64,000 nt of DNA from Planctomycetota bacterium (GCA_016192525.1 JACPTZ010000132.1:4202-68201); one strand, 5' to 3'; shown: positions 8,055-61,700, numbered from the stretch's first letter. Translations and numbers: made by a program. The notes: generated by a model from the sequence alone, not told the origin.

Positions 8055-8081
8055 CGCGAATTTCGCGAATGGCGCGAATTC
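8055..8081. repeat. Three tandem 9-mers, CGCGAA-NNN x3
   Basis: CGCGAATTT CGCGAATGG CGCGAATTC read directly from the sequence, 65-90 nt upstream of the TPR gene start (minus strand). Confidence 0.7.
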
Positions 8082-8120
8082 AAGAAACAGAGGAAACAAC
8101 GGAAACGGAGGCCGTCAGGG

Positions 8121-15427: not shown

Positions 15428-15559
15428 GTCATCCTGAGCTCGCCCGCCTCCGGTCGGCGGGCGAAGCGAAGGATCACCAGCCTCGGCCCGGTCTGGGCGA
15501 TTCCGCGGACAAGCCCGGCGATCCTTCGCCTCGCCCCGTGGGGCGAGGCTCAGGATGAC
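15428..15559. repeat. 132-nt nested-palindrome intergenic element (REP/MITE-like or structured RNA)
   Basis: The outer arms GTCATCCTGAGC (15428-15439) and GCTCAGGATGAC (15548-15559) are complementary. The inner arms GAAGCGAAGGATC and GATCCTTCGCCTC are near-complementary (11 of 13 positions). There are also two small hairpins, GCCCGCC-TCCGGTC-GGCGGGC and GCCCC-GT-GGGGC. The right arm contains the stop codon of the 15550-19023 gene. Confidence 0.65.
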
Positions 15560-33551: not shown

Positions 33552-33613
33552 CCCGATGTCTTCTCCCCCCCGACCGATCGCGCGGGACCGGCGTCACCCC
33601 GTTCCTTCCGCCT

Positions 33614-33766: not shown

Positions 33767-33838
33767 GAGCGATTCCTCCCGCGGCGAATCACGATCAGGG
33801 CCAGGAGAGAGCATCCCACACCGAGCCGCGTGTGGCCG

Positions 33839-34267: not shown

Positions 34268-34334
34268 GCCGATGTCCCTGTCGTCGGAGAGAACTCCCAC
34301 TCGCCGGGAACGCGAAGAGGGTCGCCGCTCCAAC

Positions 34335-37757: not shown

Positions 37758-37766
37758 CTATCCATC

Positions 37767-40700
37767 CTAAGGATCCACATAGTAGATCGTCCCGTTCTTC
37801 GTTCCCACGATGATCTGCGCGATCATCGGACCGAGCCCGTCCCAGTCGTCCTGAGCGGAGATGTCGGTCAGGGGGCTGGACCCCAACTGGTATCTCTTGA
37901 CGATGGTCATTGCCGCCGGAGGATCCGGAGCGACGTCCACGACATACAGGGTTCCGGCGTCGTTTCCGATGTAGGCGCGCAGCCCTGGACCGAGGTTGAT
38001 GACCAGGGGGGCCGAGCTGGCGTTCGTGCCGCCGAGGGCGAGGGCCTGACCGGGGCCAATCGCGCCTCCGGCCGCAGAAATGCGGACCAGGTACCCATTG
38101 TACGTCCCCACATAGGGGCCGTAGGAATCTCCCCAGATGTCCGGGAGCCTCTTGACGCCGCCCAGCGTCGTCACCCCGTCGATCAGGCTGACGGGGAACC
38201 CCGACACCGCCGCATAGGGCCGGCTCACGACGGCGTCCACCGCATAGCTGCCCGTAATCGTTCCGATTCCCGTAAACCGCGGCGTCGGACTCGACGCGAT
38301 GCCGGTGTAGGTAATAACCTCCCCGCCGATCGACAACTGGCCGGACGACGGCCAGCCCGCGGTGTCGGCCACCTCGATGGTCCCGTCGCCGCCGACGCTC
38401 TGATCTGCCGAACTCACGGCTTCATCGGTATCGGTGCTCGTGGAGATCCGGGCATCCAGGCCGACGAACTGCCCGACGAGGGAGGCATCGAGCTTGTCGT
38501 ACGTGCCCGCATAGACCCGCCCGTCCGTGCCGCGGTACGCGATGGGGGCATCGATGATCTTGTCGTCGGCGCCGCCGGAACTTCCCCAGCCGGCCGTGAA
38601 GTTGAATCCGGCGGACGAGAGCTCCCCTCGGGCGCAGTCGATCGCCGCATTGGAAGCCCCCATCTGGACCAGCCAACTGGTGCGAATGCCCGCGCTGTCG
38701 ACGGCCGGCGCGGCGCCGAGGGACGAGAAACTGGCGCCGGCGTTCAGATAGGGACCCGACGCGGCCGGATCCGATCGCTGTGTCTGGTAGGTGGCGCCGC
38801 CGCCCCAGACGAAGTCCGGATTCACGATGGCCCCGTCCGGGACATCGATGAGACGCAGGCAAAGCGCGAACATGTTGCGGTCCGGATCCGTGCCGGCATC
38901 TCCTCCGTCGGGCACCTCCCCACCGAACATCATGTGATACCCGCAGCTGTTGCCCTCGATAAGGCCGATGATCGCCGTCGAGATCTTCGTCACGGGATAG
39001 CCGGTGAGGTCCCAGGCCTTGGCGAGGGTGAGGGTGAGCGTGGCCGGAACATACTCGAGCATGAGCAGCCATCCGCCCTCGGTCCCGATGAAGGCGACAT
39101 TCCGTGTCTTGGCGCTCCCGACGGGGGAACTGCTCGCCTGGGAACCGCTGATATTCGTCACCCCGGTCAGTCGCTCAGGAGCTGTATCCAAACCGGAGTA
39201 ATAGACCAGGACGTCCCCGACGAAGGCCGCCCCGCCCGAGGGATCAAACCCCGCGGTCGAAGTCACTTCGATGTCGCCCTCGGTCCCGTCCGGATCGGCT
39301 GCTCCGCCCGCCAGGTCGGCGGAATCGACCGTCTCCTCCGTGAACGTCGAGGCCACCCCGTCGCCGAAGTAGAGCGTGTCCCACCAGACCAGCCCCGCCA
39401 GCGCCCCGTACGTGGCGTCCGAAACGGTGACCTGACCGATCACCTCACCATCTATGTCCAGCAGGTAGATAATGTCGTCGCCCGCGATGCGCTGAACGGC
39501 GTAGGTCCCCAAGAAATCGCCGGAGTCCAGGTCGAACGCGCCCGACGGAAAGAGCTGGTTCTCCCCGAGCACTTCGTCATTCCCGCGCGGGACCCAGTAC
39601 ACGACCCCTCCCCCGCCGTCCGAGATCCCGTCGTCGTCCGCGTCGTCGTCGCTGTCGTTGGCCTCTCCGGAGCCGGGGCCGTTGGCCGTGTCCGCGGCAT
39701 CGTCCTCGAAGGTGAGGCGCAAGTCGGAGCCGAGGGCGGGGTCGCTTACAATGACGTTCTTTCCGCCTGCAAGGAACGAGTCGTCGAAATAGCAGCGCGA
39801 ACAGAAGAGGCTCAGCGCCGCCGATTTCGTCACCCTGAGATGCGCGCCGCCGGCGGGCGCGTTCAGGAACCGGACCCGGGCGAGAGAGGTGAACGTCCCA
39901 CACTGGTCCAGGAACATTCCTGTGGCGTTCGGGGAGTTGAAATTGAGTCCGTTGATGTTGACCGTCCCGGTCGACGCCACCGAGAACCCGAAGCGGTCGG
40001 TATTCGGAATCGCGCCCTGGACGGTGGGCCAGTCGAACCAGTCGCCGGGATCGACGGTGGAGGTCTGGATCGTGCCGTTCACGGTGACCGCCTTGGTGTT
40101 CCAGATCGCGAGTACGGGCCTTGAAGCGGCGTCATCGGTCAGGTCCCTCATACGGAGGGTGGCGCCGGCCGAGACGGTGAGAGAGTCCTTGAGCGTCAAG
40201 ATCGCGGTGCCGAGGTCGAGAGTGCCACTGAGGACCCTCAGGAGCCCGGGCGCGTCGACGGTCGAATCGCCGGCAAGGGTGGCCACGACGCCGGCCGAGA
40301 CGCCGATATCGAGTTTCCCGTAGGTTGCTGTCCCCACGACGCAATCGGCCGTCTGGGAGTACAGCACCGTTCCCGACCCGGGCACAAAGGAGGTGGCGGC
40401 GAGCGGCGAAGTCACCGTGCACGTCCCGGCAAACTCCAGCGTTCCCACTCCGGTGAACTCGAGAGTGCCGTTCGCGCCGTTCCAGGCGCCGCCGACCGAT
40501 AGCGTCCCGTCCCGGATACGGATGATCCGCGTCCCGACGGCGCCGTAGGAGACGATTCCGCTCACGGTCGTCATCCCCGACCCGCGTTCGAGGATGCCGC
40601 CGTTGACCGTGAGGTTGCCGGTGATGCCGGGATCGCCGATCGGCGTTACGGTCTGTGTGGTGTCCGAGAGATCGAGCATGAGGCTGGGAAGGTCGTCCCC

Positions 40701-43700
40701 GTTCGGCGCGGTGAAGGTGCTCGTGGCATCACCGATGAACCGGATGAGGGCGGTGCCGGCGGGGTCGAGGATGCCCGCCGCGCCGCCGGTCTCAAGCGTC
40801 CGCAGCGTCCCGCCGATGCGCAGCGTACAAGTCGCATTCAGCGTGAGGGTGGCGTTCGGAGTGGAGTCGCGGACGAGCATGCTCCGACACTCGGCCGTGG
40901 CGGAGGGGCCGATCGCAGGAAGTCGCGTGGAGGCCGGATAGGCCACGGCGATGTCCTCGCCGGGGATGTCGTCGATGTCCACGAGATACCCCGGCACGGA
41001 AAGGACGGAACTGGCGACCGGGTGGGAGTCATCGACCCCCGCGACGCCCGTCAGGCGCAAGGGTCCCGTAGCCACGCCGGTGTAGGTGATGGTGTCGGGC
41101 ACGCCGCCTGTGGTGATCTGAACCGAGTAGGGCGGGGCGGGATTGCCCGGCTTCGCGGGATCGGGGAATCCCCGCAGGGAGTTCACCTCGATGGTGCCGT
41201 CGACGTTGTCCGCGGCATCCACGATCTCGACGGTCGTCCCCCGCGGGGTCCAGTTGTCCGGGTCGAACCAGTCGGTCGAGTCGTCCCCGGTCCAGGCCCG
41301 GAAGGGGAGCCAGACGATGCTCGCCGCCGCCACGGTCCCCGTCCCGGTCAGCCCGGTGGGAGAGAACTCTTCGTCGTTCTCGTTCACCTCGCCGTCCCCG
41401 CCCGGCACCATGTTCCCCGTGGGGTAACTGACGTACAACCGCGCGAGGAGGACTGAGAAGAAGCCGGAAGCGGTGGTAATGTTGAAGACCGGCGTGGTCG
41501 TGTTCGGAACCCCCGGAGGCGGACCAACGAGTTCGGCCCCGCCCGAGAACTTGCAGGCGGAGATCGTCGGCTTTCGGGCCGGGCCCGTCGCGCCAAACCT
41601 CATGTAGGTCCCGTAGGGGCTCGGATCGCCGTTGGCGAACTCGATGTCGCTGATCACGGTGACGGAGTTCGGCGAGGCGATGTTCAGCCCGTTCACGTCC
41701 GCCCACTCCATCTCCAGTCCCTCGATCTCCACCTCGCCCCCGGCGGAGACCGTGAACGAGTACCGGCCTCCCCCGCTCCGTGTGATCTTTGGCTTGGGGG
41801 CCGGCGGGTTCGGGAAGAGAAGCGTGACGATCTTCCCGTCGATCTGCGCCCCCCTCCCGCTCCCGATGGCGAGCGTCGGACGCCGGGCCGGCGAGTCCTC
41901 GCCCTGAAGCCGGAGGGTCGCCCCCGCGGACACCTTGAGCCCCTCAGTGACTGAGAGCGTGAAGTCGGCGCCGGACGGGTCCAGACTGAGCGTACCGGAC
42001 GTGACCTCGAGGGAAGGCGTGGCCGGCCAAGTTCCCCCCGTCACCGAATCGGTGGCGCTCATCGTGACCTTGTACGTGGCCCCGCAGGCGATCTTGAGGC
42101 GGTAGTAGTTCCACCCGGCGGCGGTGAGCAGGTTCTGGTCGCTGGAGGGGGCTCCGTACACCACCAGACTCTGACCCGGCGTGAAGGTCCCCAGACTGAC
42201 CGGGGGTCCATTGATATTGATCGTGGTCGATCCCCCCGTCACGACGGTCAACGTGATGTCGGTCGCGTCGAACGACCCCCCGACCGTGAAGACGCTGTTC
42301 TCGACGGTGAGGGTCCTCGTCCCGCCCGCGGCGCCGGCCTTCGAGAAGACGCCGCCCACCGTCACCGTGGCGTTCAGGATGGGCAGCGTCCCCTGTTTCA
42401 GCCGCAAATCGCCGCCGACCGCCGTCGTGCCGGGGAATGGGATGGCCACCGCCCCGGAGGTCTTGTCGATTTCCAGGGCCCCCAAGGTCGAGCCGCCCGC
42501 GTTCAACGTCTGCCCGGCGGTCCCGTACAACCGCAGAACGCTCGTGGGATCCGCGCCGATCGTCCCGCCGCTCTTGAGCAGGCTGCCCGTGAGCTGGAGG
42601 GTGGCTCCGGCCGGGAGCGTGAGCGTTCGACCCGTCATCCACAGGTTGCGGCCGTCACCGGTCGCGATGTTCAACGTGGGGTCGGGGTTCGCGCCCGCCG
42701 CGATGAGCAGATCATCGGCGGGTTGGGGGTAGTTGTCGCTCGGGCTCCAGTTGAGGGGGTCGTTCCAGGCCGTGGTCCCGTTCGCCCCGGTCCAGGTGCG
42801 GGCCGTGGGCCAACGGATGTCTCCCGTGGCGGCCCCGGTGGCGGGAGAGGTCTCTCCGTCCCTCTCGTACGCGACGGTCCCGCCGAGCCCGGACGGGAAC
42901 GACATCGTGACGGTGCCGGCGAACGGCGGATTGGACGTGAAAATGTTGTAGTCACCCGCCGCGAGGGCGGCGAAGTCGCAGAAGGCGAAATTCAGATTGC
43001 CGGAGACCCCATCGTCGAGGCGCACACCCGTCCCTCCGGGGCTGAACGTGTCGTGGAAACTCACGTTGTTCAACTGGGCGATGGTGGCCCCGGTGCGGGC
43101 ATAAAGACCGTTGGCGTTCGCGAATCCGAAGTCCAGCCCGTCCACGTCGATCGTGCCCGGCGGATCGACGACGAAGGCGAACGGCCCCGCCCCCGTCACC
43201 GACGGCTTGATGGGCGTCGCGCTCTGCCGGGACAGGAAGGTCCCGAGCACTGTGACCGTCTTTCCCGACGCCACCGCCAGGGTGGGGGTCGGCAGCGCGG
43301 CCCCGGCCTGCAGGCGGAGCGTCGCGCCCGCGGACACGTCGAGGCCGTTGTTCGCGGTGAGCGTGGACGTGCCCAGGTCCATCGTGCCCGAGAAGACCTG
43401 GACGAGACCGCCGGCGGTGGCGTCTCCTCCAAGGGTGGCGATCTTGACGTTGACGTTGACCTGCAACCGGTTGTATCCGGCGAAGGGGAAGATCGAGCTG
43501 TTGCTCGTCTGGTTGGAGTAGCTGCAGATGCCGTTGGCCCCGGGAGCGTAGGTCCCCAGACTGCTCACCGAACCGCCGATGACGAGGGCCCCGGCCCCTC
43601 CCCCCGTGTTCGTGATCGTCCCGCCGGTCCCATTGAGCGTCCCGTTGCAGGTCAACGTGCCGCTGGTGAGCGTGATCGCGCGCGTCACTCCCGGCCCCGG

Positions 43701-46700
43701 GAAGTTCAGGATGCCGCCGACCGTGCAGGCGCGCGAGTTGATGTCGAGCGTCCCCTGCTTGATCGTGAGGTTGTTGCTCACGGTCACGCTCCCCGGGGCG
43801 CCGGTGAGCGCGACCGAGCCCGACGTCTTGTCGAGTTCGATGTTGAGATAGCCTCCCGGACCGGGACCGGGACCGGGCGTGAAGTTCTGCGCCCCCGTGC
43901 CCGTGAAGGCGAGTTTCGCGTCCAGGATGACCGCGGCCCCGTTCGTATGCGAAGCGGGCGCCCCGCGGGTCAGCCCCGTGAAACTGTTGCCGGTCTTCGC
44001 CGTGTAGGTCATGTCTTCGGAATCGATGCGGAGGGTCCCGCTGTCGGCGAAGGCGCCGGTCGAGACCACGTTCGCCACGCTGTCGCCGGTCCCCATGGGG
44101 GCGCTGAGCGTCGTGGCGGCCGCCGTGAAGGAGCCAGAGTTGGTGAGGTGCCCGTTGACGTTGAGGACCCCGCCCCAGAGGAACTCGACGGGCGCGAACA
44201 CGTTGACGATCAGATTGCGGCACGAAACCGAGGCGCCGAGCCGCGGATCGTAGAACTGGTTCGGGATAATGGCATCCTCGGCCGCCTGCGGGAAGTTATC
44301 GCCCGGAGTCCAGTTCGCCGGGATGATCCAGTCGAACTGATCGAGAATCCCGTTCGCGTTGGCGTCTCCGCCGACGTTGTTTCCCCCCGCCCATGTTCGC
44401 GTCACGATCCACTCGATACTGCCGGGGGTGATTGTGCCCCCGACCCTGTCGTCCTCATACGTCTGCCCCGATCGCCCGCCGCTGCTGTTCCCCATGAGAA
44501 CGGTTGAGTCGGTGGTGTACGGGGCGGCATTCGGGGTGCGAACATTGTACGTCGCGGGATTGGCGCCCGGAAACTCGCACCCCGTGATGTTGAGCGGATT
44601 CGCGCCCGAGGGCTGCGTGGTCTGCAGGTTGAGCCAGACGCCGCCGGGATCGACCCCGTACGAGAACTTGACGTTGCTCATGTTGTAGCTGGTGAGCGTG
44701 GCCGTGCCGCCGATCGCCATCCCGGATGCGTTCGTCGACCCCACGTTCAGCCCGTCCACCGTCACCGTCCCGTTCAGCGTCAGCCCGTACCGGTCCGTCC
44801 CCGGATTCGTGCTCGTCACCGTCGGAAAGTTGGGACTCGTCCCGCTCGCGGAGAACGTCCCGTCCACCTGGAGCGTGGAACCTGCCCCCACTCGCAGCGT
44901 GCATGCGTTCGTCAGCGTCAGCGTACTCGACGCGTTCACCGTCACGTTTCCCGTCACCCGAAGGTCCGATCCCCCCGCCAGCGCCAGCGTCCGCGCCGGA
45001 GGCCCCGCCGCCACCGTCAGCGTCCCGTCCGCCGTCGCCGTCCCGTTCAGCGTCACCGTGTACCCCGCGTTGTCGATCAGGACGTTCTGGTAGTCCACCG
45101 CCGCCATCGTCTGGTCCAGGGTCCCCAGATACTGCACCGTCCCCGACCCCGCCGTGAACGACGCCGTCGTTCCAAGACTCGTCACCGCCCCCCTCAACTT
45201 CAAGACCGGCGTCCCCGTGAACGTCATCTTCCCCGTCGCGTTCGCGTTCGCGCTCCCCGTCACATCGATCGTGCTCCCCGTCGCCGCCTTCACCTCCTGG
45301 CCATCCGCCACGCTCAGGTTCCCCCCGATCGTCGCGTTGTTCGCCCCCAGGTCCACGATCCCTGTCGTCACGGTCAGGTTCGCTGCGATCGTCAAGGCCC
45401 CCGCCGGGGCGCTCGCCGTGTTCGTGCTCGTGATCGCGAACGTCAGGTGCCGGTATCCCGTCGCCCCGTTCCGCGAGAACGTGAAATCTGCCCCCGTCCG
45501 ATCGTACCGCACCGTCCCCCCCGTCCCCGGCGTCAGCCACACCGTCGCGCCAGGAACGAATGCCACCGCCCCCCCGAAGTCCACCCGCCCCGTGCCCGTG
45601 AAGACGATGTTCTTGTTCGCGTTCGTCGAGTCGGAGATCGTGCACGACCCGTTCAGGTCCAGCACCCCCGTCGAGATCGAGACCGTTCCCCCCGCCGGCG
45701 GCGTCGTGTCCGAAAGACTCGTCGCGCCCGTCACCGTCAGCGTGTTCGATCCGACATCCAGGCCTCCGTCGCTCACCGTCAGCGCGCCGGCCACCGACGT
45801 GGTCCCGCCGAGCAGCGCCGTCGAGTTCAAGCCCTTTGCGATCGTCAGGTTGTAGTACTGCGTCACCGTGTCAACCGTCTGATTCGCGTCCCAGTCGTAT
45901 TGCACCGTCCCCGCCGTCGCGTTCAGCGTTCCCAGGTCCGTCACGGGACCGCTCAGATACAGCGTCCCTCCCCCCGGCGCGAACGTGACTGTCCCTCCCG
46001 TCCCGTCGAACGTCGATCCCGCCGCCAGATCCACCACCCCGCTCCCCGCCCCCGTCCCGAGGTTCAATTTCGACGCGTTCGTCACACTCCCCGCCACGTT
46101 TACCGTCGCCGTTGTGACATCGAACGTCCCCTTCACGATGGCCAGGGACCCCCCGATCGTCAGCGTGAGTCCCGCGGGGGCGGACGCCGTGACGTTCGTC
46201 GGGATGCTCTGCGTCTCGATCGTCAGGTGGTTGTACCCCGTCGCGCCGTTCCTCGAGATCCCGAACGAGGCGTCGGCCCGGTTGAACCGCACCGTCCCCG
46301 ACCCGGGCGTCAGCCACACTGTCGGGTCCGCCGGAAAGGTCGCTGCCCCACCGAAATCCACGCGGCCCCCCGCGAACGCCCCGAAGACGATCAACGCCCC
46401 CGCCTGGATCGTACACGAGCCGTCCAGGTCCAGCAGCCCACCCGAGACCCCGTCCGATACCGTGATCTGCGCGATCGGCGCCAGGGCGTTGTCCGTCATC
46501 GTCGTCGCCCCCGTCACCCTCAGCGTCGCCGCATTCGTCGCCAAGTCCAGCGTCCCGTTGCTCACCGTCAGCGTCCCGCCCACGGCGATCGTCCCCGCGT
46601 CCGCCGTCGCCGTCCCGCCCGCCTTGTCGATCCTGAGGTTGTAGAAAGTCAAGGGCTCGACGGACTGCGCCCCTCCCGAATCGTAGACGACCGTTCCCGA

Positions 46701-49700
46701 TCCGGCCGTGAGACTGCCCAGACTGACCGGCCCTCCCAGCCGGAGCGTTCCGTCCGCGGTCGGGGCAAAGTAAACGCTCCCGGCGGCCACGGCGTAGGTC
46801 CCGTTGACGTCGAGCACGTAGTCCGCGGTCGCGGCGGAGAAGGTGATGGTGCCGTCGTTCGTCAACGTCCCGCTCACGGTGACCGTCCGGTTCGAGGCGA
46901 TCGTGGTGTCCGAGCCAAGGGGGATCGTCAGGTCGACGAAGGTGGTCGAGGTCGAGGTCCCGCCGATGCCCTGCGTCGTCCCGTCGAAGATGAACTGCGA
47001 GGCGCCGGGCCCGCCGCCGCCCGCCGTGAAGGTCCCGCCGTTGTGCGTGAAATTGCGGAGGATCGTGACGAAGGCATCCCGGGCGAGGTACGTACCTCCC
47101 GAGAGGACCAGGTCTCGCCCGATGCTGATGGCGGGATCGGAGGCGTCGTTCCCGTCGAGCGTGCCGGAAGAGACGGTCAAGTCGTTCGACACGGTGAGGG
47201 TTACACCTCCTTCCACGGTCCCCGGGGAACTTCCGGCGATCGTCAGGTCCCAATACGATCCGAGAGCCCCGCGAATGGTCTGCGCCCCGACGCCGTCGTA
47301 GATGAAATTGCTCGAACCGGGCGAGAAGGACCCGAGGGCCGTCACGGTGCTGGAGGCGCGAATCGTGCTCGCGCCGGTGCATGTGAGGTAATCCGTGGGC
47401 GCGGCCGCGCTGATGTTGATGTCCCCGTTGGCGTCGAAGGTCCCAGTCCCGACCTTCAGCGTGGCCACCGTGCCGCCGACGGAACTCGTCGTGGCCCCGT
47501 TGACCGTCAATGTGGCGGTGCCGATGTCAAGTGTCCCTTCCGTGAGGGTGAAAGCGCCGGCCACGGTGGTGTCCGTCGCGAGGATCGCCATCCCGCCGGT
47601 CTTGTTCACGGTCAGGTTCGCGATGCGGCCGTCCCCGACCGTGGTGCCTCCCGGGTCGAGGGTCTGGTTGGCGTCTCCCAGCAGGGCGATGGTCCCGGCG
47701 GTCATATTAAGGGCGCCGGTGCTGAGGACGGTGATGTCACCGTACACATTGAGCGTGTTGGCGGCGGTGATGTTGAGCGTGCCGGTCGTGATGAGCAGAC
47801 TCTTGCAATCTCTTGGAGTGGCGTTGAGCGTGGGGTTGCGGCCGCCGTCCCCGAGCGGGATGCGGACGTTGTTGGCGTTCGTGGGGACCGCGCCCCCGGA
47901 CCAGTTGCTCCCGGTGTCCCAGGCCGTCGTCCCGCCGGGGTTGGGACTCTTCCAGATGATGTAGACGGGCCAGGTGATCCGCCCGGGCGTGACCGAGCCG
48001 CCCTCGTTGTCGTTCTCATACGACGCCCCGGCGCCGGCCCCCGACGCGGAGAGCATCTCCACGCTCGTCAAGAACCCGGCCGGCGTCGCCACGTTGAACG
48101 GGGTCGTGGCGGCGAAGGAACACTCCGAGAACTGGAACGTGGCGGGATTGATCTCACGCTCAACCTTGAGGCAGCAGGCGTAGCCGTAGGTGACGGGGGT
48201 GGTCGATACGTTCGAGAACGCGACCCGGTCCACGTCGCAGGAGGCGGAGGCGTTGCCGAGCAGGCGCAGCCCGTCCCCGTTCACGTACTCGAGGTTCAAG
48301 CCGTCGAGGGCTGCGCGCCCTCCATTCTGGACGGTGAAGGCGTACGATGCCGCGGGCGCGAGTCGGGTGATCGTCGGAGTCCCGCCCGAGATCGCTGAGG
48401 TCAGCACGCCGTTCGCGGTGGCCGTACCGATCGAAAGCGACAAGCCCAGTCGCAAGATCGCCGTTCCCGAGAGCGCCAGAGTCCCGTTTCCGGTCACGCC
48501 CGCGGCGCCGGTGATCTCCAGGACGCTGCCTCCCGGCAGGCTCAGAGTGCCGGTCGATACCTCGCAGGTCCCGGTCGCCGCGATGGTGGCCGCCGTGGAG
48601 GCGGTCACCGTCTGGCCCGAGGCGCTGACCTTGAGGTTCTTGTAGGTCGCCGGTCGCAGGGTCTGAGCGCTCCCCGTGTCCTGGTAGACGACGAGGCTGT
48701 TGCCCGCGGTGAAGCCCCCCATGCTCGTCACGGGGCCGTCGAGCTCGAGCGTGGCGTTTCCGGCCCCCGGAGAGAAGTCCACGGTCCCGCCGGTCGCATC
48801 GAAGGTCCCATCCACATGAACCGTCCCTCCGGCGGCCTTGAGCGTGCCGCTCGCGCCTACGGAAAGGCCACCGCCGGCGGTGATCCCGAGGGCGGCCAGA
48901 TCGAGCGTCCCCGCCGTCACGGTGAGGTTCCCGGAGATCGTGAGTGCGCCGGCCGTGGTCGAGGTGAGGCCCGCCGCGCGGTTGAGCGTCAGGTTGGCGT
49001 AGTTCGAGGGGGCGGGGACGAGGACCTGCTGATCGCCCGCGGCCGTGGAACGGTAGGCCACCGTGCATCCGCTCGCGGACGTGAAACTCCCGAGGCTGGA
49101 GACGCTTCCGCGAAGGGTGAGCGTCCCGGCGCCGGAGAAGATGACGGCACCCGTTGGCGGGCCACCCGCCGGTGCGTCAGCGGTGAAGGCGCCGCCGACA
49201 TCGAGGGACCCCGTCGTGATCCGCAGTGTCGCGTTGTCCTCGATCGTGGCCGCGCCGGTCACGGTGACCGCGTTGGCGCCGGTGGAGAAGGTCCCTGAGG
49301 TCACCGTGAGCGTGCCCCCCACTGAGAATGTCCCTGTCGCGGTGCCAGTGCTCGCCCCTTTCACGATCTCGAGGTTGTTGTAGGAGACGTCGCGCACGCT
49401 CTGATCGGAAACGCCGTCGTATCGAACGGTCCCCGTGCCGCCGCTGAACGTCCCCAGGCTCGTGACCGCGCCCGCGAGTCGGAGCGTCCCGGCCCCGGGG
49501 GAGTTGATGAAACCGCCGGCCGCCGTGAAGGCGCCGTCGGCGTCGAGCGTCCCTCCGGCCTGCAGGTTCAGCGTTCCGCCGATGCTCGTCGAGCTCGTAC
49601 CGTCCACGGTGACGGTGGCGCCGCTGATGTCGAGCGTGGAGTTGACCGTGAGCGACGAGGAGGCCCCGATCGCGACGGCCGCGGAAATCGTCTTGACGCT

Positions 49701-52700
49701 GGTCCCCGCCACGGTCAGGGAGGCCAGCGAGGTGGACGCGGCCGTGCCCCCGAAACCCTGGGCCGCGCCGTCCAGGGTGACGAGTCCCGTGGGCGCGGTG
49801 AACGTGCAGGCGGCGGCGTGAGAGAAGTCACCGGCCAGGTTCAGGGTCTGCCCCCCTAGGGTGAACGTCCCGCCGTTGAGCGTCAACGCCCCTTCGATGT
49901 CGAGCGCGTTGTTCGCGACGAAGGTCCCGCTCGTGAGCGCAAAACCGCCGTTCACGTCGAGCACGGCCGCGGCCTGGGCGTTCGCCGTCATCCCCGAGGT
50001 GTCGACCTCCAGGTGATGGTACGCGATGCCGGACGTGAGGATCGTGCTCCCCGCGGCCTGATTGCGATAGACGACGGTCCCGTTTCCGGCCGTGAAGACG
50101 GCGCCCAGGCTGGTGACGGCCCCCCCCAGCCGGAGCGTGCCGGTCCCGGCGGCACCGAAGGTCACGGTGGCCCCCGTGGCATTGAAGGAACCGGCGGCAT
50201 CGAAAACGGGAGTAGCGCCGGAGAGCGTCAGGGTACCGGCGATGGTCGCGGCCCCGTTCGCGGTGAAGGTGTAACTTGTGGAGATCGTAAGCTCGCCGCT
50301 CACCGTGAGCGATCCCAGCGAAGCGACGCTCGCCGAGTGATTCAGGGTCGTCGTTGAGCCGGGGGCGATCGCCAGGCTGTAGAACGGAATCGCGCTGGGG
50401 GCCGTGCCGCCGATCGCCTGAGCGCCGCCGTCGAAGGTGACGAGGCTCGTGACGGGCGTGATGGCGCCGCCGTCGAAAGCAAAATTGCCCGCGAAGGTGT
50501 GGCTCGACGACCCGAGGTTGAGCGTGCCGGCGTTGCTCTCCATGACGAAAGCGCCGTTTGCGTCGATCGCCGCCCCGGCCGTCAGGTTCCCGGTAACGAT
50601 CCGCAGCGTGCCGCCGACCTTCAGCGCCGCGCTCGCGCCGGTCGTCCCGGTGGTTCCGGCCGCCTTTGCGATCTCGAGGTTGTTGTAATCGTATGGCACG
50701 ACAACATTGAGGGTCCGGATCGTCTGGTCCGCGGCGCCGTCGTACGAAACGGTCCCCGTCCCCGCGGTGAAGTTACCGAGGCCGTTCAGCGGCACGCCCC
50801 CGCCAAGTTCCAGGCGCCCGGTGCCGGTGAACGTGACCGCGCCTCCGGCGGAGGCGTCGAACGCGCCATGTCCGTCCGCGGTGCCGGTCCCGATCTGCAG
50901 GGTCCCCTCCCCTTTGATCGTCATGTCTCCCGCCCCAGCCCCGGCTCCGACCGTGAGCGTCTTCGCCCCCACATCCAGAGTCCCCTTCGTAAGCGTCAGT
51001 TCGTTGGAAACGGTCAGATTCCCCGGCGAACCCGTCAGCACGACCAGACCGGTGGTCTTATTGACTTCGACATTGAGATACTCGGATCCCCCCGGGGTGA
51101 AATTCTGGGTTCCGGTGCCGCTGAAGACGAGTTTCATTCCCGCCGCCATGCCGATCGAGCCGGCCACGGACGCATTGCCCTTCACGTCGAGCGTCCCGCC
51201 GTCCTGGAACTCGACGGGGGCACCGCCGCTGATCGTCAGGTTGCGGCATGCGGCTGGAACATTGAGCTGGGGGTCGTACAGCAGGTTGGGAATGACGACA
51301 TCGTCCCCCGCCAGCGGGTAACTGTCGCTCGGGTTCCAGTTCGCCGCGGTCGTCCAGTTTCGCTCGAAGCCGACCGTGCCTCCGGTCCAGGTTCGGAGCA
51401 TGATCCACTCGATGCTGCCCGGGGTCTGGGTCCCGCCCGTCCCGGGGGGATTGAAGAAGTCATCCTCATAGGTCGCGCCGGATCTGGCCCCGGGGGACTG
51501 TCCCATCAGGACCGTAGAAGCCGCATAGGTGCTGGGCGTGCGGACGTTGTACTGGGCGAAGTCCGAGCCAGGGAAGGTGACGGCGGTCACATTGAACGGG
51601 CCGGCGGAAGTCGTCTGGAAGTTGAGCCAGACGCCGCCGGGATCGACCCCGTACGAGAACTTGACGTTGGCCAGGTTGTTCCCCGTCAGCGTGGACGTGG
51701 CGCCGATCACCATCCCGGAGGCATTCGTCGACCCCACGTTCAGCCCGTCCACCGTCACCGCCCCGTTCAGCACGAACCCGTACCGGTCCGTCCCCGGATT
51801 CGTGCTCGTCACCGTCGGAAGGTTCGGACTCGTCCCGCTCGCCGCGAACGTTCCGTCCACCTGAAGCGTGGAGGCGTTTCCCACCCGCAGCGTGCACGCG
51901 TTCGTGAGCGTCAGCGTGCTCGACGCGTTCACCGTCACGTTTCCCGTCACCCGCAGGTCCGACCCTCCCGCCAGCGCCAGCGTCCGCGCCGGAGGGCCCG
52001 CCGTCACGGTCAGCGTCCCGTCCGCCGTCGCCGTCCCGTTCAACGTCACCGTGAACCCCGCGTTGTCGATCAGAAGGTTCTGATAGTCCACCGCCGCCAT
52101 CGTCTGGTCCACTGTCCCCAGATACTGCACCGTCCCCGACCCCGCCGTGAACGACGCCGTCGTTCCCAGGCTCGTCACCGCCCCCCTCAGCTTCAGGACC
52201 GGCGCCCCCGTGAACGTCATCTTCCCCGTTGCGTTCGCGTTCACGCTCCCCGTCACGTCGATTGTCTCCCCCGTGTTCGCCTTCAGTTCGTGCCCGTCGG
52301 CGATCGCCAGATTCCCTGCGACAGAGATCGTCGCGCCGGCCGCGCTCAGATCCATGATCCCCGTCGTGATCGTAAGGTTTCCCGCGATCGTCAAGGCCCC
52401 CGCCGGGGCGCTTGCCGTGTTTGTGCTCGTGATCGCGAACGTCAGGTGCCGGTACCCCGTCGTCCCGTTCCGCGAAAACGTGAAATCCGCCCCCGTCCGA
52501 TCGTACCGCACCGTCCCCCCGATCCCCGGCGTCAGCCACACCGTCGGGTCCGCCGGGAACGTCGTTGCTCCCCCGAAGTCCACCCGCCCGATCCCCGTGA
52601 ACACCAGGTTCTTGTTCCCGTTCGTCGACCCCGCGATCGTGCTCGACCCGTTCAGGTCCAGCACCCCCGTCGAGATCGAGACCGTTCCCCCCGCCGGCGG

Positions 52701-55700
52701 CGTCGTGTCCGACAGATTCGTCGCCCCCGTCACCGTCAACGTGTTCGCCCCGACATCGAACCCCCCGTCGCTCACCGTCAGCGCACCGGCCACCGCGGTC
52801 GACCCGCTCCCCAGCGTCGCCGTCCCTCCCGTCTTCGCGATGGTCAGGTTGTAGTACTGCGTCACCGCGTCCACCGTCTGGTCCGCCGTCGAGTCGTACA
52901 CCACCGTCCCCGCCGTCGCGTTCAGCGTCCCCAGGTCCGTCACCGAGCCGCTCAGATACAGCGCCCCCCCCCCCGACGCGAACATGAGCGTCCCTCCCGT
53001 CCCGTCGAACGTCGATCCCGCCGCCAGATCCACCACCCCGCTCCCCGCCCCCGTCCCGAGGTTCAACTTCGAGGCATTCGTCACCCCCCCCGCCACGTTC
53101 ACCGTCGCCGTCGTGACATCGAACGTCCCCTTGACGATGGCCAGGGCGCCGCCGACCGTCAGCGTGAGTCCCGCCGGGGCGGACGCCGTGACGTTCGTCG
53201 GCGTGTTCTGCGTCTCGATCGCCAGGTGGTTGTATCCCGTCGCGCCGTTCCTCGAGATCCCGAACGAGGCGTCGACCCGGTTGAACCGAATCGTCCCCGA
53301 CCCGGGCGTCAGCCACACCGTCGGGTCCGCCGGAAAGGTCGCCGCCCCTCCGAAGTCCACCCGGCCCCCGGCGAACGCGCCGAAAACGATCAACGCCCCC
53401 GCCTGGATCGTGCATGCCCCATTCAGGTCGAGCACGCCGGCGGAGACCCCGTCCGATACCGTCACCTGCGCGATCGGGGCCCCCCCGTTGTCCGACAGGA
53501 GCGCCGATCCATCCACCTTCAGCGTCGCCGCGTTCGTCGCCAAGTCCAGCATCCCGTTGCTCACCGTCAGCGTCCCGCCCACGCCGACCGTCAGCGTCCC
53601 TGCGTTTGCCGTCGCCGTCCCGCCCGCTTTGTCGATCTTGAGGCTGTAGAACGTGAGGGCCTCGACCGATTGCGCCCCGCCCGAGTCGTAGGTAATCGTC
53701 CCCGATCCGGCTGTGAGCGACCGCAGGAGGGCGCTTCCGCCCAGACGAAGTTCCCCGCCGGCGGTGAAGACGACGGTGCTTCCCACGGCTCCATCAAATG
53801 GCCCGTTGACGTCGAGCAGGTGGTTCGAGGCGTTCGCGAAGGTGAGGGTGCCGTTGTTGGTCAGGGTGCCGTTCACCGCGATCGTGAGCCCCGAGGCGAT
53901 GGTCGTGTCGGAGTCGGAGGCGATCGTCACGCTGTTGAATGACGTGTTGACGGCGCCTCCGATGACCTGCGTCGCCGACGACGGCGGATCGAACGTAAAG
54001 AGCGACGACCCGCCGGACGTGACGGAATCGAACGTGCCTCCGTTGTGCGTGAAATCCCGTCCGATGTTGACGGTCGCATTCCGGGTGTAGTACGTCCCCG
54101 CCCCCGCGCCAAGAATGAAGTCCCGTGTCAGGTTGATCGTCACGTTCGTCGTGGCCGGGACGGCGTCGCTGTCTAGATTGCCGGTCGAGAGGGTCAGGTC
54201 GTTCGTGACGTTGAGCGTCCCGCCATCAGGGACGGTGGCCGTGACTCCGGCGGCTTTCCCGAGGGTCAGATTGTAGTAAGTGGTTCCAGCGGTCAAGATC
54301 GTCGCGTTCGCGCCGCCATCGTAGATGAACGTCCCCGTCGAGGCGGTGAAACTCCCCAGACGGGTGACGCTGCTGGAGGCGCGGATCGTGCTCGTCCCCA
54401 CGCACGTAAGGAAGTCCGTCGGGGCGGCGGTGCTGATGTTGATGTCTGCGTTGGCGTCGAACGTGCCGGTGCCGATCCTCAGGAGGGCCGCGGCGCCTCC
54501 GTCCGGGCTGGTCGTCGCGCCGTTCACCGTGAGGGTGACGCTTCCGACGTTGAGCGTCCCCGCGGTCAGCGTGAGGGCGCCCGAAACGGTGGTATCGGTC
54601 GAGAGCGTGGCCGTCCCGCCGGTCTTGTCAACGGTGAGGTTGGTGATCCGGCCGTCGCCGGCGGCCGTGCCGCCGGGATCGAAGGTCTGGTTCGCGCTCC
54701 CGCGAAGGGAGATCGTCCCGGCGGTCATGTTCAGGACGCCGGCGCTCTCCACCGTGAAATCACCGTAGATCTCGAGCGTGTTGGCGGCGCTGATGGTCAG
54801 GCGCCCATTCGTGATCTGGAGCGACTTGCACCCGCCGAGCCAGACCTGGGCCCCGGAGGTGTGAGCGGCCGCAGTAGTGTAGTTCACGCCGCGCACCAGC
54901 CCGGTGAAGGTGGTGGCCGTGGTCCCGGTGTAGCGCATCGCCTCCGAATCGATGAGCAGCGATCCCTCCGCCGGGAAACCGGCGGTCGAAACAACCGTCG
55001 CGGTGCCGCCGCCGATCGTCAGATCGGCCGTGAGCGAGGTCGAGGCCACCGTGATGTTCAGCGTGGGGTCGTTCACCTTGTCGTCGATCCGGACGTTGTC
55101 GTTGGCCGTGGGAACGGCCCCCGTGCTCCAGTTCTGGCGGGTTCCCCAAGCCGTGCTGTTGGCTCCGGTCCAGAGTATCGCCACTGGCCAGGTGATCTCG
55201 CCCGGATTCACCGTCCCCGGGTTCTCGCTGTCGTTCTCGTAGGTCGCCCCCGAGCCGGGGCCCGTGGCCGAGAGCAGTTCGATGCCGCCGGTGAAGTCGA
55301 TTCCGGCGGAGGCCACGTTGTACTGGGGCGGGGCGGCGAGGGGATTGACCGAGGTGAAGGAGCAGTCGGAGAACTGGTACTTCGTCACGAGTCGCACCGC
55401 GGCGCCGGAGTTGTGGGCGTCGGCGGCCGTCCCGTTCACCCCGCGGGTCACCCCCTCGAAGGTCCCCGCGGTCGTCGAGGAGTAGTTCATCTCCTCAGCG
55501 TCGATCCGCAGGGTGCCCGACGAAGGAAAAGAACCCGTGGACGTGGCGCCGATCGTCGTGTCGGTAGCCAAAATCGCTCCGGAGAGCGAGGTTGATCGCG
55601 AGATCCGGACGTTCAGAAACGACGTGTAGCCGTAGTTGACGGCGATCGTGGCGACATTCGCGAACGCGATGCCGCCCATCACGCTCGACACCGACGAGTC

Positions 55701-58700
55701 GCCCAAGAGACGCAATCCGTCGCCGTCCAAGTATTCGATATTCAGACCGGCGAGATTGACGCGCCCGTCGTTGCGAACCGTGAAGGCGAACGAGGTCGCG
55801 GGGGCCAGCCGCGTGATCGTCGGCGTGCCGCTCGATACCGCCGAGGTCAACACGCCGTTCGCCGTGGAGGCCGTGCCGATCGAGAGCGAAGCGCCCAGCC
55901 GCAGGGTGGCCGTCCCGGCGAGGTCGAGCTCTCCCCCCCCCGTCACCTCCATCGCGCCCGTGACCTCCGTCGTGCTCGAACCCGGGAGGAGAAGCGTCCC
56001 GGCCCGCACCGTACAAACTCCGCCCACGGCGATCGTGGCCGCCGTCGAGGCCGTCACCGTCTGTCCTGAGGCATTCACCCTCAGATCGTAGTACGTCGCT
56101 GGACGCAGGGTCTGGGCCGAGGCGGTGTCCTGATAGACCACGAGGCTGCTCCCCGCGGTGAAAGTCCCCAAGCCCGTCACCGGACCGTCGAGCTCTAGGG
56201 TGGCCGTCCCGGGCGCGGGCGAGAAGTCCACGGCGCCCGCCGACGCGTCGAAGGTCCCATCGAGGTGTACCGTCCCCCCGGAGGCCTTGAGCGTGCCGTC
56301 GGCGCCGACCGTGATGTTCCCCGCCACGCTGATCCCGAGCGCGGCCAGATTCAGCGTCCCGGCCGTGACGGTGAGGTTGCCGCTGATGGTGAGGCCCCCG
56401 GCCGGCGTGGACTCCAGTCCGACGGCGCGGTTGAGCGTCAGGTTGGCGTAGTTCGACGGCGCCGGGACCAGGATCTGCTGGTCGCCGGGCGAAGTCGACC
56501 GATACGACACCGTGCTCCCCGACACAGACGTGAAACTCCCGAGGCTGGCGACGCTCCCGCGCAGCCGCAACGTCCCCGCGCCGGTGAAGGCGACGGCGCC
56601 TGTCGGCGCCCCGGCCGGCGAATCGGCGGTGAAGGCGCCGGTGACATCGAGGATGCCGGTGGCCGGCAGCGTGAGCGTCGCCCCGTCCGCGATCGTCGTG
56701 GAGCCGGACAGGGTGTTGACGGTCACCGTATTCCCGCCTACGGCGAAGACGCCCGAACTCACGGTCAGGCTTCTCTGGACCGTGAAGGTCCCCGAGGCCG
56801 TGCCGGTGCTACCTCCGCCCTTGGCGATCTCCAGGATGTTGTACGTGACGGCGCGAACGTCCTGGGCGAACGAGCCGTCGTATCGGACCGTTCCGGACCC
56901 GCCGTCTAAGGTACCGAGGCTGGTGACCGTGCCCGCGAGCCGGAGCGTCCCCGCCCCGGGGAAGTTCACGAAACCGCCGGACGCGGTGAAGGAACCGTTC
57001 GCGTCGAACACCCCGCTCGCCTGCAGATTCAGCGTCCCGCTGACGGCCGTCGAGCCGTCCACCGTGAACGTGACCCCGCTGACGTCCAGGGTCGAGTTGA
57101 CCGCTAGGGCGGATCCCGAACCGACGGTCACGGCGCCGTTCACCGTCTTCGTCCCCGTACCGGCGACCGTCAGGGAGGCGAGCGAGGTCGCCGCGGCGCC
57201 GCCGAAGTTCTGCGCCGCGCCGTCGAGCGTGACGAGCCCGGAACTCACGCTGAACGTGCCCGCGCTGTGATCGAAACTCCCGGCCAAGTTCAGGTTCTGC
57301 GTGCCCAACGTGAAGGTGCCGGTCGACGACATCGTCAACGCGCCCTCCACGTCGAGGGCGTTCCCGGCCGAGAAGTTGCCGGCGTTCTTCACCTCGAAGG
57401 CGCCGTTCACGTCGAGGGTGGCCGTTGCGCTGCCCGCGGCGGTCCCGGCGGTCTTGTCGATCGTCAGATTCCAGTAGGTGAACTGGCTCGTCGGAACCGT
57501 CTGCCCCCCCGATCCACCGAAGACAATCGTCCCGGTCGTCGCCGCGAAAGGAGTGGACGAGAGACTGGTGACTGTCCCGTCCAGGCGCAACGTGGCGTTC
57601 CCCGTGAAGGTCAGGGGCCCGGTCAGGTTGAAGTCCGAGGACGCGGTCAGCGCCTCCACGCTCCATGTCCCGGCCAGGAAGGTGAGTGACCCGCCCCCGG
57701 TGACGCTTCCGCTGGCGATCAGCCTCCGATCGGCCGCGATCTCGAGGGCGCCGGTGGAGTTGATCGTCAAGGTCCCGCCAGCGGTGACCGTAACCGCCGC
57801 GGCCGACGTGTTGACGCGGGCGGTCGCTCCCGACGCGATCGTGAGGATATTGAATGCGGTCGGGGCGGTCCCTCCGACCGTTTGCGTCGAGGTCCCGCCG
57901 AACGTGAAGGTCCCGGCGCCCGCGTCGAAGGTCCCGCCATCGTGCGTGAAGTTGCCCTTGATCGTGTGTGCGTGAGACCCGGCCGTGAAGGTCCCGGCGT
58001 CCATCTCGAACGCGCCGTTCAGGCTCATGGCCTTTCCGGCCACCAGGGTTCCCGCCTTCAGCCAGAGGAGGCCGTTGACGACCAGGTCGGCGGCCGTGCC
58101 CGTGGACGCCGTTCCGCTGCTCTTGTCGATCTCCAGATTGTTGTAGGCGATCCCGGAGGTGCGGATCGTCTGGTCCGCGGTCCCGTCGTAGGAGACCGTC
58201 CCGGTCCCCGCCCCGAAGGGCGTCCCGAGCCCGCCGGAAGGAAGGTCGGCGCCGAGCTGGAGGCGTCCCGAGCCCGTGAAATCCACGGCGCCGCCGTTGA
58301 GGTTGAAGGTCCCGTTGGCGTCGACCGTGCCGGACCCGATCTTGAGGGTCCCCGTCCCGCCTGAGGTTTGCAGGGCGCCATCGACGCGAAGGGTGGAGGA
58401 CCCGACATCGAACGTGCCGAAGGTCATCGTCACGTTGCCCGCGACGGTCATGTTCGCGAGCAGGACGGCCACGCCGCCGGGCTTGTCGATGACCAGATTC
58501 GCGAGGCGTCCGTCTCCGGGGGCGGTCCCGCCGGGGTCGATTCCCCGCTGATCGCCCTCCCCGGAGAACGTGATCGTCCCGGCGGTCATGTTGAGGGCCC
58601 CCGCCGCCGCCACCGAGAGGTCGCCGTACACCTTGAGGGTGTTCGCGCTGTTATTGAGGGTGAGCGTGCCGGTGGGGATGCTGAGCGAGGCGCATTCCCC

Positions 58701-61700
58701 GAGGCTCACGTCCAGGGTCGGTTGAAACGCTACGGCGGGGATGATGGCGTCTGTGTCCTGGGTGGGAATGCCCGCGCTCCAGTTCCCCGCCGTGTTCCAG
58801 GAGGTCGTGCCCGCGCCGCCGGTCCACGTGGACGAGAGGACCCACTTGATGCTGCCGGAGGCGGAAGCATCGGCGCCGCCGTCGCGGTCGTTCTCGGTCG
58901 CCGTTCCGCCCGTGGGCGAGAGGTTGATCGTCACAACCTTGCCGGCAGCCCAGGCGGGGTCCGTCCGAACCGAGTACGGCGGATACGTGGGCCCCAGGCC
59001 CTCGAATGTGAGCGTGCTGAACGTCAGGTTGACGGCGTTGACGCCGAGTTCGAGGTAGAGAAAGGCGTCCTCATCGGTACCCAGCAACGCCGTCTGGGGG
59101 TTCTTGAATGTGACGTTTCGGATGTCGATGTCCGTCGTCGCGGCGCCCGGGTTCAGATGGAGCCCTCGATTATTGCGCGTGTATACGCTGTCGAGCGTCA
59201 TCCCCGTGATCGTGACCAACCCTCCGGGATCGCTCTGAAGACCGACCTCGAAGCCGAAGCGAGTGGTCCCGGGGTTGTCGCTTCTGATCGTGGGGTAGAC
59301 CGAACCCGTATTCGACTGGAACGTCCCCCGGATGTCGATGACGGTCGTGTCCGCCATCGTGATAGATGAACCGTTGTTGCCGCCCTTGATCTCCAGCGTT
59401 GCCCCGGGCGACACGATCAGGTCCGGATCGGTGTTTCCCGCGACGAGATCGCCAATCACGGTGAGGTCGTTGGTGTCCTGGATCAGGAACGTACCCGACG
59501 AGACGGTCAACAGCCGGTTCACGGTGAAGTCGCCTCCGGCCGTGAGCGTCCGACCGGTCCCCGAGCTAAGGGTCAGGTTCCCGTACGCGACCGCCTCGAC
59601 GGTCTCGTTGGCCCCGGTGTAGTTGTAGATGACCGTACTGGACGTAACGCCATAGGTGAATGTCCCGAGACTGGTCACAGGGCCGGACAGTTCCAGGGTT
59701 CCCGCGCCCGTGAAGGTCACTTTCCCCCCGGTCGCGTTGAAGGTCCCGGCCACGTCGAGCATGCCGGCAGCTATCTTCACCCACCCACCGACGGTCGCGT
59801 TCCCGCCCACCGGGATCGATGTCCCGGAGACGTCGAAGATGCTGTCGAGGGCCCCGCTCTCCGTCACCGCCAGGTTGTTCGTCACGGAGAACGAGCCCCC
59901 GGCGGTCGCCGTCCTCGGCTTGTTGTCGATCGTGAGTTTGTAATACGAACCGCCGCTCGGCACGACGACCGTCTGGTCCCCCCCCGTGTTGTCGTAGACC
60001 ACTTCACTCTGCCCGATCGTGCACGTTCCCAAACTCGTCACCGCGGAGCCCAATTTCAGGATCCCGGTGCCCGTTCCGCCGAACGTGAGGGTTCGTCCCG
60101 CCATGTCGAACGCGGAGTCGACGTCGAGAGTGGACGAACCGGTGATCGAACTCTTGATCGTGAGAGAGGCTTCGGGATTCGACGATGCCCCGGGGGCGAT
60201 CGGGAACGCGGAGAAGCTCAACGCCGCCGTCTGACCGTTGTTGTCGATTTCGAGGTCGTAGTAGCGGACGTCGGCCAAGGTCTGATTCGCCCCCATGTAG
60301 CGGACGCGCCCCTGTCCGGCCTCGAAGGAGGCGGATGCGCCCAGGCCGATGACCGTCCCCCCCGTCACGTCCAATCGCCCCGTGCCCGCGACGCCGAACG
60401 TGACGGTTCGCCCAGCGGTGAGCGCGATCCCACCGCCGGCGATTAGGATTGAGGTTCCGGTCAGGGTCAGCGTTCCTCCGGAGGCGATCCCGATGTTCCC
60501 GGCCGACCAAGTGTCGATGATCGGAACCGAGGCCGTCGCGGTTCGCGCCGACTCGCTGCCGCCGCTCTTGTCGATCGTCAGATTGTAGTATCCGACGGCA
60601 GCGATGTTCTGTCCGGACGCGGCGTCGTTGTAGATCACCGTGCATCCGGCGAAGGCCGTGAAAGAGCCGCCCGCCCCCTCGGCCAGTTTCCCCGCGGCGC
60701 CGCCGAGGGTCAGCGTCCCGGCCCCCGTGAACGTAACGCTCCTGTTCCCCGCCCCGGTGAGGTCGAATCCCGCGTTCACGTCCACCGTAGAGGCGCCGCC
60801 GATCGTCAGCGTGGGGTTCCCCGTCGTGTCGCCGTTCCCCAGCGTCGTCTGGTTGATCGTGAAACCGACCGTCGCCGTCTGCCCCCCCGTCACCGACAGG
60901 TTGTAGTAGTTCACGCCGGCCACGGTCTGCGCCGCTGCCGAGGCGTAGTTCACCGTCCCCTTCCCGGCCGTGAACGTCCCGAGACTCGTCACCGTGGAGT
61001 CCAGTTGCAGCGTCCCGGTGGCAGTGGGCACGAACATCACGGTCCGACCGGTCGCGTCGAACCCCCCGGTCACCCGCGCCGTGGCCGGTCCGGAGATCGC
61101 GAGCCCGTTCATGAGGTTCGTCGCCGTCACGGACCCGACGGTGACGGTGTTCGCCAGGCCGCCGGCGATGCCGATCTCCAGGTTGTAGTAGTTCTCCGCG
61201 GGGACCGTCAGCACTGTGGCCGCGGTGTACTGAACGGTCCCGTTCCCCGCCGTGAATCCCAGGGCGGACCCGAGCGACGTGACGGCCCCGCGGAGGATCA
61301 ACCGGCCCGTCCCCGCCGCGCCGAAGGTCAGGATCTTGCCGGTTCGATCGAACGAGAACGTCCCGGTCACGTCCACCACGGAGGCCCCGGAGATCGTGAG
61401 GCTGTTTTCGACGCTCGTGGTCGTCACGTTGAACCCGATCGACGCGGTCCTCCCGCCGTTGTTCGCGGTCAGGTCCCAGTAGTTCGCCGTGTAGACGGTC
61501 TGGTCCGACGCCGCATTGTCGTAGATCACCTCGCTCGTCGAGCGGGTGAAGACGCCGAGATTCGGCGCCGGGTCTCCGCTCAGGTAGAGCTTGCCCGCCC
61601 CCCCCGTGAAGGTGACGATACCTGTGGTATTCGCCGTGAACAGGCCGTTCGCGTCCACCGTGCCGGTCGAGATCCTCATCTCCTTCAGCGCGGCGACCGA

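Follow-up and report, generated by a model that had tools for sequence, protein, structure and literature searches.

Homogenisation of intragenic repeats and mosaicism are well known from large surface-protein genes. The Helicobacter pylori surface protein CagY undergoes in-frame recombination among intragenic direct repeats (PMC2194252). Intragenic homogenisation and concerted evolution have been described for spidroin repeats (PMC3933166), ectopic recombination for the yeast FLO adhesins (PMC3512402) and long-lasting concerted evolution for prokaryotic paralogues (PMC6053082). The gene analysed here, giant1, is a case of this well-known kind in an uncharacterised protein family. It lies in a 64,000-nucleotide (nt) stretch of a groundwater Planctomycetota genome (GCA_016192525.1, JACPTZ010000132.1:4202-68201; 68% GC), which we refer to as the window. 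Giant1 (37767..63167, minus strand) is a single open reading frame (ORF) of 8,466 amino acids (aa) with a third-position GC content (GC3) of 0.88. It carries two collinear copies of a two-module block of about 7 kb, and its history most probably comprises an ancient duplication of this block, one later gene conversion or segmental replacement of about 2.1 kb, and subsequent divergence.

Giant1 resembles CagY in that large direct repeats lie inside a single gene for a surface or secreted protein and in that the repeat register preserves the frame, so that recombination would yield in-frame length variants. The repeats of CagY, however, are short, numerous and highly similar, and their rearrangement has been seen experimentally, whereas giant1 holds two 2.1-kb tracts at 87% identity. 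With the spidroins, the FLO genes and the concerted paralogues it shares segments that are more alike than the age of the duplication predicts, silent sites included, and discrete tract boundaries; it differs from concerted evolution in that homogenisation was single, old and partial (synonymous divergence, dS, ~0.25) and that the rest of the block escaped. The penA/pbp genes of Neisseria and pneumococci are mosaics that arose by recombination with a diverged donor, and like them giant1 contains a block whose base composition and history are unlike those of its flanks. Here, in contrast, no donor was found in any collection searched, the block is present twice, and the compositional shift is restricted to synonymous sites and extreme (G at 0.79-0.88 of four-fold degenerate sites). 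A search for a silent donor cassette of the pilE/pilS, vlsE or msp2 type revealed none within the 64-kb window.

A recurring 'W..NW.P...P' motif marks the module starts at aa 29, 1457, 2666, 3927, 5083 and 6280 of giant1. It places the borders of bi-module copy A (modules 2 and 3, aa 1448-3926; 51390..58826, minus strand) and bi-module copy B (modules 4 and 5, aa 3927-6258; 44394..51389, minus strand) where the original prediction had set them. The two copies have the same orientation and are collinear at the protein and DNA levels, as had been proposed: protein alignment was accompanied by a blastn search of the gene against itself, in which 44617-47772 matched 51610-54795 with 80.2% identity and 48180-49969 matched 55626-57424 with 71.5%. 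Maximal-scoring identity segments delimit core A in module 3 (aa 3151-3849; 51621..53717, minus strand), covering the last ~2.6 repeat units of the module and the first half of its cap domain, and core B in module 5 (aa 5486-6180; 44628..46712, minus strand). The segment score was 258.2, against a mean of 15.5 and a maximum of 30.0 in a null of 1,000 shuffles of the codon columns. In the alignment of the two cores, 87.4% of 2,085 aligned nt and 85% of the aa agree, so that the earlier estimate of about nine in ten nucleotides was right, if slightly generous. Codon-aware alignment in 100-codon windows gave 83-94% nt identity in the core and 50-76% in the flanks, which bears out the claim that the core is far more similar than its surroundings. 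The cores had also been said to be closer to each other than to the equivalent part of the paralogue giant2, and this part (aa 2966-3603; 22743-24656, minus strand) indeed shares only 43-44% aa identity with either of them. Corresponding positions of the two cores are offset by 6,993 and 6,999 nt, equal to 2,331 and 2,333 codons and in frame, in agreement with the anticipated spacing of ~2,330 aa.

Substitution analysis separated the ages of core and flanks. Between A and B, dS by the Nei-Gojobori method (NG86) was 0.26 (0.20-0.30) for the core and 0.93, 0.95 and 1.35 for three flank segments, and the composition-corrected four-fold distance was 0.245 for the core and 1.45, a saturated value, for the flanks. 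Nonsynonymous divergence (dN) amounted to 0.094 in the core and 0.30-0.40 in the flanks (dN/dS 0.37 and 0.29-0.33, respectively). Third-position identity was 0.71-0.90 in the core and 0.34-0.62 in the flanks, where the A-B values are like those of A against giant2, of B against giant2 and of every comparison with L001, a homologue found in another metagenome-assembled genome (MAG). The cores go back to a common ancestor whose age is between one third and one sixth of that of the block duplication. The original prediction had offered recent duplication of the 7-kb block, and a recent origin of the whole block followed by fast divergence of the flanks would agree with its collinearity over the entire length. 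We regard this as scarcely credible: the synonymous sites of the flanks are saturated, so the block duplication is not recent, and fast protein evolution cannot cause such saturation. Moreover, only 2.1 of ~7 kb are similar and low divergence is not uniform across the block. The A-B protein distances in the flanks (0.34-0.91) are of the same order as the distances to giant2 and to the other-genome homologue L001, and one segment is nearer to giant2 than to the other copy.

Trees of individual segments revealed different histories along the block. In the core, every bootstrap tree (500/500) pairs A and B as sisters, separated by 0.16, and the flank 5' of the core forms an unresolved trichotomy of A, B and L001 (0.57, 0.61, 0.66). 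The segment nearer to giant2 comprises aa 1761-1952 of A (~57312-57887), which group with aa ~1727-1916 of giant2 in 500/500 bootstraps at a Kimura distance of 0.43, compared with 0.91 to B, with saturated silent sites. Judged by these sequence comparisons, it probably stems from an older exchange or replacement between giant1 and giant2, or within module 4. The following stretch of A (aa 1953-2427) clusters with B at a distance of 0.34. Only the core is young, in a 7-kb duplication that is ancient and itself mosaic; this is the pattern that gene conversion or segmental replacement leaves, and not recent duplication.

The similarity of the cores might alternatively be explained without recombination, by stronger purifying selection on this region and convergence on G-ending codons. 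Base composition alone does predict a four-fold-site identity of 0.667 (66.7%) between the cores, and their raw similarity is therefore partly compositional. The observed identity is nevertheless 0.827 (82.7%; P=5e-13), and non-G states (C, A, T) are shared at 40 four-fold sites where 7.4 are expected, a 5-fold excess. Nor does the core evolve slowly in general, since its Kimura protein distances from giant2 (0.85-0.88) and L001 (0.70) match those of the flanks in size, and its dN/dS of 0.37 is no lower than that of the flanks. We therefore consider an origin without recombination very unlikely.

The downstream breakpoint of the core is sharp and lies right after an exact match of 49 nt (51621-51669 in A), and the upstream breakpoint is a ramp of ~30 codons. 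All insertions and deletions between the cores are in frame, the reading frame is intact at all four junctions, and the substitutions are symmetric and of all types. Thirteen exact stretches of 31-77 nt are found; the longest is barely above chance given the codon-position structure (P=0.04). Ongoing gene conversion had been named as a further possibility. Conversion as such is supported by a core that is much younger at synonymous sites; that it is still going on is contradicted by the ~13% difference between the cores and by a longest identical run of 77 nt. Since the tracts have come to lie ~13% apart after copying, conversion is a past event and not a running process. Two other sources of the pattern were rejected. 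A diversity-generating retroelement does not fit mismatches that are not adenine-specific, tracts of ~2 kb and not ~0.1 kb, and Pfam matches of the window genes that include no reverse transcriptase. Growth of the core from a short G-rich seed by recent internal amplification does not fit 780-nt units within the core that are only 65-70% identical.

Both cores contain an island of G-ending codons. It spans aa 3183-3829 in core A (51681..53621, minus strand; four-fold G 0.79, peak 0.88) and aa 5515-6151 in core B (44715..46625, minus strand; four-fold G 0.78). Only 0.14 of the four-fold third positions in the cores are C, and 92-94% of Thr codons are ACG and 67-70% of Gly codons GGG. In the rest of giant1, in all of giant2 including its core equivalent, and in eight other genes of the window, the four-fold fractions are 0.31-0.44 for G and 0.45-0.60 for C; those of the L001 homologue are 0.45-0.48 and 0.45-0.50. 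In 200-codon windows the background of giant1 was 0.427 +/- 0.057 G and the cores reached 0.88, and no such island was found in giant2 or in three homologous giant genes of other genomes (standard deviation 0.03-0.05). Codon positions 1 and 2 and the aa composition are the same in the cores as elsewhere, so the shift concerns silent sites only. GC skew on the coding strand is +0.21 in the cores and -0.03 to -0.06 elsewhere. The G-rich segments are nested in the identity tract and stop 20-30 codons short of each end; the last ~20 codons of the tract are ordinary C-ending codons. G occupies 294/404 shared four-fold sites in both copies, which implies that the common ancestor of the cores already had a G fraction of 0.73-0.88. 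The G-rich state is older than the split between core A and core B. The coincidence of the tract boundaries with an island that was G-rich before this split indicates that the tract had a history of its own, distinct from that of the remaining gene.

One canonical G-quadruplex motif occurs in each core at homologous positions (46037-46058 and 53036-53057, with the G on the minus strand), which is uninformative alone. Runs of at least four G on the coding strand number 23-27 per kb in the cores and ~10 elsewhere (2-3 times denser). Motif and runs may be by-products of the G-ending codons.

The codon island is the sole truly odd element of the case, and several candidate explanations of its origin were rejected. 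Antisense genes beneath the cores are not indicated, as the six plus-strand ORFs there have no Pfam match and are the usual shadow ORFs of high-GC DNA. C-to-T hypermutation of a strand exposed in R-loops should raise the T fraction at two-fold NNY sites, which is 0.135 in the cores against 0.167-0.19 and thus not raised. CpG avoidance, judged by eye, conflicts with the favoured codons ACG, GCG, TCG and CCG. A replication-strand switch of a paralogue is too small a cause, with a background four-fold skew of only ~-0.12 compared with the +0.70 to be explained, and a phage origin is not supported by the IMG/VR scan, which gave no relatives. A search of the literature on comparable codon islands found nothing useful. 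More speculatively, the G-richness of the non-template strand might have been left by a strand-asymmetric bias of repair in repeated recombination (e.g. C.C mismatches escaping mismatch repair), or might be a functional, switch-region-like and R-loop-prone substrate for in-frame deletion and re-duplication of the block; we give these ideas little credence. If such a substrate were real, in-frame loss or gain of the two-module block of 2,331-2,333 codons would lead to length variation of the giant surface protein.

A third sequence, a G-rich cassette or paralogous module of ~2.1 kb elsewhere in the genome or of foreign origin, could have overwritten modules 3 and 5 separately, in which case the 13% difference between A and B would reflect different times or different donor copies. 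A donor of fixed length would explain the near-equal end points and the presence of the island in both tracts without coincidence, and a G-rich state older than the A/B split is in line with it. No such sequence was detected, however, in the window or in any collection searched. The identity tract furthermore does not stop with the G-rich part but continues at either end through ~20-30 codons of normal usage, among them the exact match of 49 nt at its 3' limit, and copying between A and B fits this at least as well. Separate overwriting by a third donor is thus an unlikely explanation, though one with some points in its favour.

The contig comes from a short-read MAG, the giant genes are fragmented in Logan assemblies with k=31, and the codon island looks foreign; a single copy might have been falsely doubled during metagenome assembly, or G-rich tracts of another organism's homologue spliced in. 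The copies, however, differ at 13% of the core positions and at 30-50% of the flank positions, the frame is kept over all four junctions, and a chimera could only have formed through four long exact overlaps joining sequences of unlike codon usage. The two blocks have 175 31-mers, 38 55-mers and one 77-mer in common and no shared k-mer of at least 78 nt, so that assembly at k=141 in the manner of MEGAHIT, or reads of 150 nt, separate both copies. Three Logan assemblies of other runs hold 100%-identical pieces of the locus. Contig L005 (k=31) is 100% identical over 31577-44657 and stops 30 nt (k-1) into core B, at the first 31-mer common to both cores. Because a de Bruijn graph must branch where the reads hold two contexts, this end is indirect support for two copies, and it lies exactly where the reads must hold a second context for the 49-mer. 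An assembly artefact is accordingly unlikely, and we put its chances very low. The hazard for short-read assembly that had been foreseen is real at small k, as the break of L005 at the first shared repeat shows, and disappears at k=141 or with 150-nt reads.

Three further Logan contigs from three runs (L002-L004: 15036-22011, 15036-19372 and 15036-19179) all end at 15036, inside a sigma-54 response-regulator gene, and the other end of L005, at 31577, falls within giant2. The window contains no repeated 31-mer that would explain the breaks at 15036 or 31577; they may reflect a repeated sequence in another part of the genome or variation among strains.

The history that we favour, copying of the core between the two halves of an old duplication, runs as follows. 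The flanks demonstrate that the tandem duplication of a two-module block of ~2,400 aa is old, with a time-scale comparable to that of the splits from giant2 and from the other-genome homologue. Long afterwards, at between about one sixth and one third of the age of the duplication, a single stretch of ~2.1 kb in the distal half of modules 3 and 5 was homogenised; the pattern itself is observed, and we infer non-reciprocal homologous recombination as its mechanism. The tracts have since drifted to the ~13% nt divergence seen today, under purifying selection as in the rest of the gene (dN/dS ~0.3-0.4). Before it was copied, the converted tract already had its extreme preference for G-ending codons, as the ancestral four-fold G fraction of 0.73-0.88 documents. 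The gene would then be a mosaic: most simply, the tract may have evolved for long in an unsampled donor gene whose synonymous sites followed another regime, before it was inserted into giant1 and copied across. The two tracts may still serve, if weakly, as a substrate for in-frame loss or renewed duplication of 2,331-2,333 codons. RecA and mismatch-repair barriers would be expected to make crossover between tracts of 13% divergence infrequent.

Some observations weigh against this history. Mismatches within the core are patchy, with 7-33 per 40 codons (chi-square P=2e-8), and may reflect several old events rather than one, or uneven constraint. Support for the number of copies in the organism comes from the assembly plus a single indirect, independent observation. 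The search for a donor of the G-rich tract was negative among 1.8 billion representative proteins (best 47% identity), in the scans of genomes, metagenomes and viral contigs, or elsewhere in the window. To our knowledge, GGG and ACG at the frequencies seen in the cores are unlike any genome-wide usage, which makes a simple foreign-gene donor itself awkward.

Both giant1 and giant2 have an N-terminal signal peptide and consist of ~15% Gly and ~15% Thr, with an overall composition rich in G, T, A, S and N. Their modules of ~1,150-1,430 aa begin with a 'W..NW.P...P..D' motif and end with a cap domain. Giant1 has about six long and two short modules (starts at aa 29, 1457, 2666, 3927, 5083, 6280, 6801 and 7286), which are made of G/T/A/S-rich repeats of ~115/240 aa; a hidden Markov model of these sub-repeats gave 70 matches over giant1 and giant2. 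The C-terminus of giant1 is a propeller-like domain ending in '...GTIYYVD'. A motif '..V(V/I)TYTG...(S/T)P.P(R/K)FTG(V/I)(S/G)G' is present between the last module and the propeller-like domain in at least 3 copies in giant2 (aa ~4330-4560) and 2 copies in giant1 (aa ~7900-8300), and a search for a family matching it gave no match. Apart from a weak G8 match, no Pfam or NCBIfam families were found in the giants. The modules are structural repeats and not those of a non-ribosomal peptide or polyketide megasynthase, as condensation, adenylation, ketosynthase and acyltransferase domains were not found.

The AlphaFold2 model of core and cap (mean predicted local distance difference test score, pLDDT, 76.8; predicted TM score, pTM, 0.67) shows an all-beta array of regular short strands. 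Foldseek comparison with the PDB returned as top matches only beta-helix passengers, two-partner secretion (TPS) adhesins, tailspikes and lyases, none of them significant (E >= 0.03, TM <= 0.27). Giant1 is thus modelled as a secreted protein of repeated, beta-solenoid-like modules of ~1,200 aa, outside any named family. By this model, its signal peptide and its G/T/A/S/N-rich composition it would resemble the right-handed beta-helix passengers Ag43, SepA, EspC, Hbp and EtpA and phage tailspikes. It differs from the beta-helices of autotransporters and TPS proteins in that Pfam and NCBIfam detected no autotransporter barrel, TPS domain or PATR domain, and in having its own 'W..NW.P' motif with cap and a propeller-like end.

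Searches for relatives of the giants revealed 10 matches in a word-indexed protein search and 131 among 1.84 billion representative proteins. None in the collections searched was close: the best homologue is 47-50% identical, and the closest match to the core among the 1.84 billion representatives has at most 47% identity. A scan of GTDB genomes detected one distant homologue, and scans of Joint Genome Institute (JGI) metagenomes for orthologues or strain variants and of the IMG/VR viral collection for relatives gave no match. The exact 8,466-aa product of giant1 is absent from a collection of 15 billion proteins in which neighbours from the same contig are present; in the public record it may have another annotated start or may not be annotated as a protein.

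All convincing genes of the window are on the minus strand. Giant2 (19071..33551, minus strand; MBI3098717.1) encodes 4,826 aa and is 38-41% identical to giant1 at the aa level, with nt identity of at most 66-73%. Directly downstream of giant1 lies a gene for a protein of 1,140 aa with Pfam matches to PQQ-type beta-propeller, TSP3 and beta-helix repeats (34335..37757, minus strand; MBI3098720.1). Downstream of giant2 follows a paralogous PQQ-type beta-propeller protein of 1,157 aa, also assigned by Pfam (15550..19023, minus strand; MBI3098716.1), and the two propeller proteins are 54.6% identical. Since each giant is paired with a downstream propeller paralogue, the locus 15550-37757 together with giant1 is the product of an old tandem duplication of a giant-plus-propeller gene pair. 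Between the two units are small genes at 33839-34267 (142 aa), overlain by a longer ORF at 33839-34492 with a weak match to the DUF6036 nucleotidyltransferase family, and at 33614-33766 (50 aa). Exact protein matches assign the window to a 71,275-bp contig of an NCBI MAG with locus tags HYY93_, in which uvrA is MBI3098709.1. At 8122-8331, between a TPR gene (7088-7990) and an NTP_transf_5 gene (8450-9808), a 21-nt tandem repeat occurs in 10 copies with 94% match (ACAACAACAGCGACAACAGCC); apart from the giant1 cores, repeated 31-mers in the window are found only there.

For practical purposes, the locus is a warning for k-mer-based assembly and annotation of giant repeat genes. The codon island is the feature that could matter more, with ~80-88% G at four-fold sites over ~2 kb compared with ~40% in gene and genome, and with limits that coincide with a recombination tract. 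Should the island prove to be something other than a patch imported from elsewhere, it would suggest a strand-asymmetric bias in recombination or repair, or selection at the level of DNA or RNA and not of protein, and we know of no case in which either has been established for bacteria. As it stands, giant1 offers a well-dated example of how a giant repeat protein grows and is patched, by block duplication, long divergence and local conversion.

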